This document shows, piece by piece, positions 78 to 605 of a stretch of DNA of 1,434 nt (within the stretch, counting starts at the first letter, position 1; every line of letters starts with the position of its first letter). The notes under the pieces are model-generated. The model made no database searches, was not told the origin of the DNA, and was given only the letters and a program-made list of their open reading frames with translations. The DNA is from Escherichia coli (GTDB taxonomy: Bacteria; Pseudomonadota; Gammaproteobacteria; Enterobacterales; Enterobacteriaceae). Location of the stretch: NCBI RefSeq assembly GCF_003334385.1, contig NZ_QOWN01000112.1. The stretch is one strand, 5' to 3'. A program made the position numbers and the translations under genes.

Positions 78-605
78 GGCGATCCGCCCCTCTTCGAGCG
101 CCAGGCGCACCGATGGATGAGTTTGCAAATTAGCCAACTGAGCAATGACGTTTTCACGTACCATCGCCGCAGCTTTTGACGGTAAATCGGAATGCGGGCG
201 CGCCTCATTAACGACGCGGGCTGAATCGGCATAACGCAGCCAGTGGGAGACGGCAGGCATATGGTCCATGCACTGACAGCTGGCAATGGCGGTCATCGCG
301 CCACAGTTGGAATGACCACAAATCACAATGTCAGATACCCGAAGCGCAGCGACGGCATACTCCACCGAAGCAGAAACGCCACCGGGTTCCGGCCCGTAGG
401 AAGGGACGATATTGCCCGCGTTGCGAATAACGAACAGATCGCCAGGCTCACGTTGCGTCACCAGCTCAGGGACCAGACGGCTGTCGGAGCAGGAGATAAA
501 AAGTGTGCGCGGGCTTTGCTGTGTCGCCAGCTGTTTAAACAAGGCTTCCCGCTTCGGAAATGCCTCGCGCTGGAATTTAAGGAATCCATCAATAATCTCT
601 TTCAC
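66..605 (-). CDS. cynT: Beta-class carbonic anhydrase CynT, 3'-truncated by the element junction (probable pseudogene). Native codons span 78-605 (176 codons); the last three codons (His-Lys-Arg) and the stop at 66-68 are read from the element end.
   Basis: The translation [30 protein letters not shown]... matches E. coli CynT as I recall it up to ...LALEEGRIA, then diverges (expected continuation LHGWVYDIESG..., full length about 219 aa). Zinc-ligand motifs CSDSR and HSNCG are retained. The start codon is GTG at 603-605 (- strand) with an AGAGG Shine-Dalgarno about 6 nt upstream (+ coordinates 611-615). Confidence 0.88.

Follow-up and report, generated by a model that had tools for sequence, protein, structure and literature searches.

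A cynT junction in Escherichia coli as an IS186 insertion at a degenerate G4-N7-C3 target site

In the stretch of Escherichia coli DNA considered here (1,434 nucleotides, analysed at its full length and called the window), the carbonic anhydrase gene cynT runs directly into the tip of an insertion sequence, which raises the question of whether the join records a genuine transposition of IS186 into a preferred target or an artificial joining of unrelated molecules. IS186 hot spots include the lon promoter, fimA, and menC, the first of which was reportedly described by SaiSree in 2001. We are highly confident that a genuine insertion of IS186 (an IS4-family element with the InsL transposase) into a slightly degenerate target in cynT, GGGG-CGGATCG-CCC, at codons 172-177, produced the boundary at 77/78, which is its IRR-side junction. 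The window contains the following features.

1..77, plus strand: terminal 77 nt of IS186 at its transposase-distal (IRR) end, matching the final 77 nt of K-12 IS186A base for base
55-77: 23-bp terminal inverted repeat of IS186, CATAAGCGCTAACTTAAGGGTTG when read from base 77 (minus strand)
66..605, minus strand: truncated cynT (carbonic anhydrase), residues 1-176 of 219 followed by His-Lys-Arg from the IS tip and a stop
78..88, plus strand: one copy of the 11-bp target-site duplication, GGCGATCCGCC on the plus strand and GGCGGATCGCC on the cynT sense strand
78..90, minus strand: motif GGGG-CGGATCG-CC, the remnant of the native G4-N7-C3 target, cynT codons 172-176
606..713, no strand: intact cynT-cynR intergenic region between the divergent genes, from MG1655 identity and gene annotation
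714..1418, plus strand: cynR, encoding a LysR-type regulator, cut after residue 215 of 299 and extended by 19 IS-encoded residues before a stop
1346..1357, plus strand: second junction motif, GGGG-CTACAT-CC, what is left of the native cynR target, G4-N6-CCAC
1348-1357, plus strand: one copy of the 10-bp target duplication, GGCTACATCC
1358..1434, minus strand: second IS186 IRR end, inverted relative to 1-77; its reverse complement matches the K-12 IS186A end exactly

Native E. coli DNA occupies positions 78-1357, and positions 77-1357 are 100% identical to K-12 MG1655. On either side, 1-77 and 1358-1434 match the IRR end of K-12 IS186A through both the 23-bp inverted repeat and the interior, and it is the interior sequence AACCATCTGAAG that identifies positions 1-77 as IRR rather than IRL; the element is annotated in RefSeq as IS186/IS421. 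A perfect 79-nt inverted repeat (1-79 and 1356-1434), consisting of the 77-nt IRR end and a shared CC, bounds the window. Because these 77-79-nt overhangs are symmetric where the unique segment enters the repeat, we infer that the window is a whole contig of a short-read de Bruijn graph, stopping in the repeat at both sides. The element bodies extend past both edges, with 77 nt of each copy inside the window, and the outer flanks and the partner duplication copy of the source genome fall outside it. From this layout it follows that a fragment of 1,280 bp lies between two inverted IS186 copies, both window ends facing the cynT'-cynR' fragment with the same IS186 end (IRR). A single small circle carrying just one IS copy was discarded as an explanation, since both fragment ends abut that same end. 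A 10-nt exact match, ATGCCTCGCG, between the IS186 end (1423-1432, and inverted at 3-12) and cynT (560-569) is most likely a chance occurrence.

The earlier note had described the junction as GGGG-N7-CC with the element tip directly 3' of the CC, and this description holds: the minus strand of 78-90 is GGGGCGGATCGCC, and the IS186 tip CATAAGCGC... begins at the next base, 77. The comparison with uninterrupted cynT that the note had called for places the native site at GGGG-CGGATCG-CCC, i.e., G4-N7-C3 (GGGGCGGATCGCCCTGCAC in MG1655, whose sense strand across the site reads GAAGAGGGGCGGATCGCCCTGCACGG), with three Cs and the break after the second of them, following codon 176, so that the G-run/C-run motif is present in the intact gene at this position. 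The preference of IS186 for G4-N(6-7)-C4-type targets, on which the note relied, is documented by Lee et al. 2016 (PMC5009759), who gave the target as 5'-GGGG(N6/N7)CCCC-3' from 59 reconstructed sites in mutation accumulation, with a core of 6 bp at 41 and of 7 bp at 16 of them, 1-2 base departures at 7 sites, and insertions in either orientation. Relative to this consensus, the C-run of the cynT target is one base short of a full C4, a departure within the 1-2 base deviations of those 7 of 59 sites. Within the window, the third C of the native cynT site is indistinguishable from the first base of the IS tip; the native cynR site (GGGGCTACATCCACAGG) has only two Cs, which assigns the initial C of CATAAG to the element and settles the reading at cynT as well.

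By itself, the number of GGGG-N7-CC motifs in the window is not significant (two against 0.59 expected, with at least two in 30 of 200 shuffles). The register of the motif is non-random: both IS tips abut G4-N6/7-CC exactly, the background rate of this pattern being 2.9e-4 per oriented position (48 matches in 2 x 83,297 nt of E. coli), and the only two G4-N6/7-CC sites on both strands of the native cyn locus (3,281 nt) are the two junctions.

The geometry recurs in other copies of the element. The three K-12 IS186 copies occupy canonical G4-N6-C4 sites and carry 10-bp GG+N6+CC duplications, and among 13 distinct IS186 flanks, 12 end in CC beside the tip, while a run of at least three Gs lies 6 or 7 bases further out in 11, ten of these with the full GGGG; the IRL-side flank in cynR has GTGG in its place. 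CC, not CCCC, is the normal look of one IS186 junction and does not signify a weak consensus, since the staggered cut puts the other two bases of the C-run across the element. On the length of the IS186 duplication, PMC9927407 holds no information. The only flank lacking the terminal CC belongs to a copy in GCA_047262435.1 (contig L018, 10645-11982), which has the same cynR IRR junction as the window; its IRL side abuts GGGGAATACAGT and adjoins an invasin/intimin-like gene, not the rest of cynR, which points to an IS186-associated deletion or rearrangement.

The earlier note had also taken the junction for a true transposition event rather than a chimeric join and had proposed to look for the duplicated target on the other side of the element. 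Both points are borne out by a 1.5-Mb contig of GCA_037022815.1 (L008), which carries a complete IS186 at the identical cynT position with an 11-bp duplication, GGCGGATCGCC; its junctions read gaagaggggcggatcgcc/cataag... and ...cttatg/ggcggatcgccctgcacgg (the slash marking the break), and cynS and cynX follow directly beyond the IS, so that the insertion is simple and unrearranged. The partner cynT junction was, in addition, predicted from the cynR geometry as GTGCAGGGCGATCCGCC/CATAAG (IS tip CATAAGCGC) and then searched for; a match at 100% identity was found in the complete genome of SCU-104 (NZ_CP053284.1). The duplicated target is accordingly present at the identical site, outside the window, in both L008 (11 bp) and SCU-104, but only in L008 does it lie across the element, the partner in SCU-104 being 2.98 Mb away. 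In the window, the copy at 78..88 comprises two bases of each run and the 7-bp core.

Relatives with the same junction carry an element of 1,339-1,340 nt with the IS421/IS186 transposase. The length of IS186 varies by one base around the usual 1,339 nt, with 1,340 nt in L008 (10529-11868) and 1,338 nt in RM14721 (L038, 3082-4419), and the transposase of the latter copy is annotated as frameshifted.

As the sequences show, the transposase used a site made up of a G-run, a core of 6-7 bp, and a C-run, with strand-transfer points staggered by 11 bp and placed two bases inside each run. Repair then duplicated GG, the core, and CC on both sides of the element, and each flank, read towards the tip, accordingly shows GGGG-N7-CC/CATAAG. 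A second, inverted IS186 lies in cynR at a distance of 1,280 bp, where it occupies a G4-N6-CC(AC) target with the same geometry and a 10-bp duplication.

The junction at 1357/1358 in cynR, GGGG-CTACAT-CC followed by the tip, has the same geometry as that in cynT, and its sequence is identical to that of cynR::IS186 in E308, where a complete IS186 lies in cynR with the 10-bp duplication GGCTACATCC. Of 4,206 complete genomes, 14 carry IS186 at this site, 10 of them in the orientation of the window and 4 in the opposite one; RM14721 carries the opposite orientation, and OkiPb01676 has the insertion on a divergent haplotype in which a core SNP changes the duplication to GGCTGCATCC. The element and geometry in these and other cynR::IS186 isolates are those of the second window junction. 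The native site, GGGG-CTACAT-CCAC, is two bases off the consensus; it differs from the cynT site in the length of its core (6 bp) and duplication (10 bp) and in a C half-site, CCAC, that departs further from the consensus. It has been struck independently on haplotypes that diverge from one another and in either orientation. Despite its half-site, the cynR target is thus a hot spot that IS186 uses repeatedly in nature, whereas the cynT site is not demonstrably so. No paper linking IS186 with cynT or cynR was found in the literature searched.

At cynT, all contigs that explicitly show the junction belong to one K-12-like haplotype (99.7-100% identity over 8-10 kb), and SCU-104 is the sole carrier among 4,205 cynT-bearing complete genomes. 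For these reasons, the cynT insertion may be a single ancestral event in one lineage seen in human-gut samples rather than evidence of a hot spot; recurrent insertion at the site was considered and found unsupported, given the single haplotype shared by the explicit junction contigs. The 179-aa CynT'-IS fusion protein occurs exactly in 72 public contigs and the 234-aa CynR'-IS product in 53, and a scan of JGI metagenomes returned no match to the exact cynT junction. Among near-identical cynT::IS186 contigs (L008, L009, L015), the copy number of a ~200-bp repeat between codA and cynR differs.

A separate group of contigs encodes a 174-aa partial CynT (21 contigs, 68 collection blocks). They come from several assemblers, some are ~5% divergent from the window, and they end at the equivalent of window position 82 or 84, 4-6 bases inside the target core and without IS sequence. 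A 27-nt stretch (CGCC plus the inverted repeat) is common to both cynT junctions, and position 82 lies one base outside it, which suggests that the assembler may have trimmed the ends; branching at mixed alleles would predict that the contigs stop at 77. When the end of one of these contigs served as a query, only genomes with intact cynT were returned. These contigs were left out of the count of independent insertions.

Could the junction be genuine and the locus nevertheless have been rearranged since? Homologous recombination between inverted IS186 copies would have moved the partner half of cynT, leaving an unrelated other flank without a matching duplication. Such a history opposes only the expectation of a duplicated target across the adjacent IS copy, and exactly this kind of rearrangement is displayed by SCU-104, the one complete genome with the cynT junction. 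Both cynT junctions are present there, with the gene halves 2.98 Mb apart: at the cynT-proximal half, the far (IRL) side of the IS abuts a type I-E CRISPR repeat beside iap, and at the cynT-distal half, the far side of the IS abuts hokX/cysH. An inversion through recombination between inverted IS186 copies, of which the genome holds 22, would be expected to leave this pattern. The CRISPR/iap and hokX/cysH flanks do not match each other (L001 1200-1240, L004 4400-4430), which suggests that, besides undergoing the 2.98-Mb inversion that splits cynT, SCU-104 has lost the DNA that usually separates the CRISPR array from hokX. The inverted IS copies flanking the window fragment would likewise let that fragment flip. 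Set against this is the simple insertion in L008, with cynS and cynX directly beyond the IS, and we consider a later rearrangement in the source genome possible, if somewhat unlikely.

The two remaining alternatives question the contig itself. It might merge two populations or strains, with cynT::IS186 and cynR::IS186 on different molecules, in keeping with the complete genomes, which carry one insertion or the other and never both (none of 5,426 has the two junctions together), and with the inability of short-read graphs to phase past read or insert length. From the behaviour of de Bruijn graphs, however, a mixture would be expected to make each junction branch against the native allele and the contig stop there, not 77 nt into the IS, and an independent NCBI isolate assembly (GCA_024395315.1) includes a contig of 1,269 nt that is delimited at both sites, spans window 84-1352 with one SNP, ends within 5-6 bases inside each junction, and fits the same doubly interrupted locus; a merger of strains is thus very improbable. 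As for a chimera or other assembly artefact, the window does end in repeats, and its perfect 79-nt inverted repeat is typical of assembly-graph edges, yet the identical junction recurs in a complete genome of long-read grade, in a 1.5-Mb contig, and in many metagenome contigs from different assemblers, the duplication at the cynT junction has the proper 11 bp, and register with the known target motif would arise by chance at only ~3e-4 per junction. A chimeric join is effectively excluded.

The cynT::IS186 junction, read as a genuine insertion, is already known IS186 biology in its tip, target class, cut geometry, and duplication length. Compared with K-12 IS186A/B/C (IS421; IS4 family), it shares the terminal sequence, the target architecture, and the cut geometry (GG + core + CC), and its 7-bp core belongs to a class described in PMC5009759; it departs from known IS186 targets in its C-run, which is one base short (C3), in its location in cynT, and in being rarely occupied (1 of 4,205 complete genomes). 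Like Tn5/Tn10-type composite transposons, the window has two inverted IS4-family copies bracketing a short chromosomal segment, but its two junctions occupy different native targets that are collinear with the undisturbed locus, and the cargo consists of two gene fragments. These native, collinear positions of the inner junctions indicate that IS186 inserted in two separate events, not that a composite unit transposed.

Judging from the sequence, the carbonic anhydrase and the regulator would both be truncated, with cynS and cynX separated from the cynT-proximal DNA in the window, and because cynT and cynR are truncated, the cyanate-detoxification operon is very probably not inducible in the source strain. 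It seems very improbable that the locus means more than this, whether through an inverted IS186 pair that allows the cynT-cynR control region to invert or be mobilised as a cassette, or through repeated cyn inactivation (cynR in 14 complete genomes, cynT in one widespread gut lineage) that reflects selection against cyn function in some commensal lineages, not target preference alone. Confirmation that an actual IS186 insertion, rather than a misassembly, forms the contig edge carries little weight beyond bookkeeping. Its practical use lies in what it says of the element in natural isolates, where IS186 takes degenerate sites (C3, even CCAC) and where cynR is a recurrent natural target.
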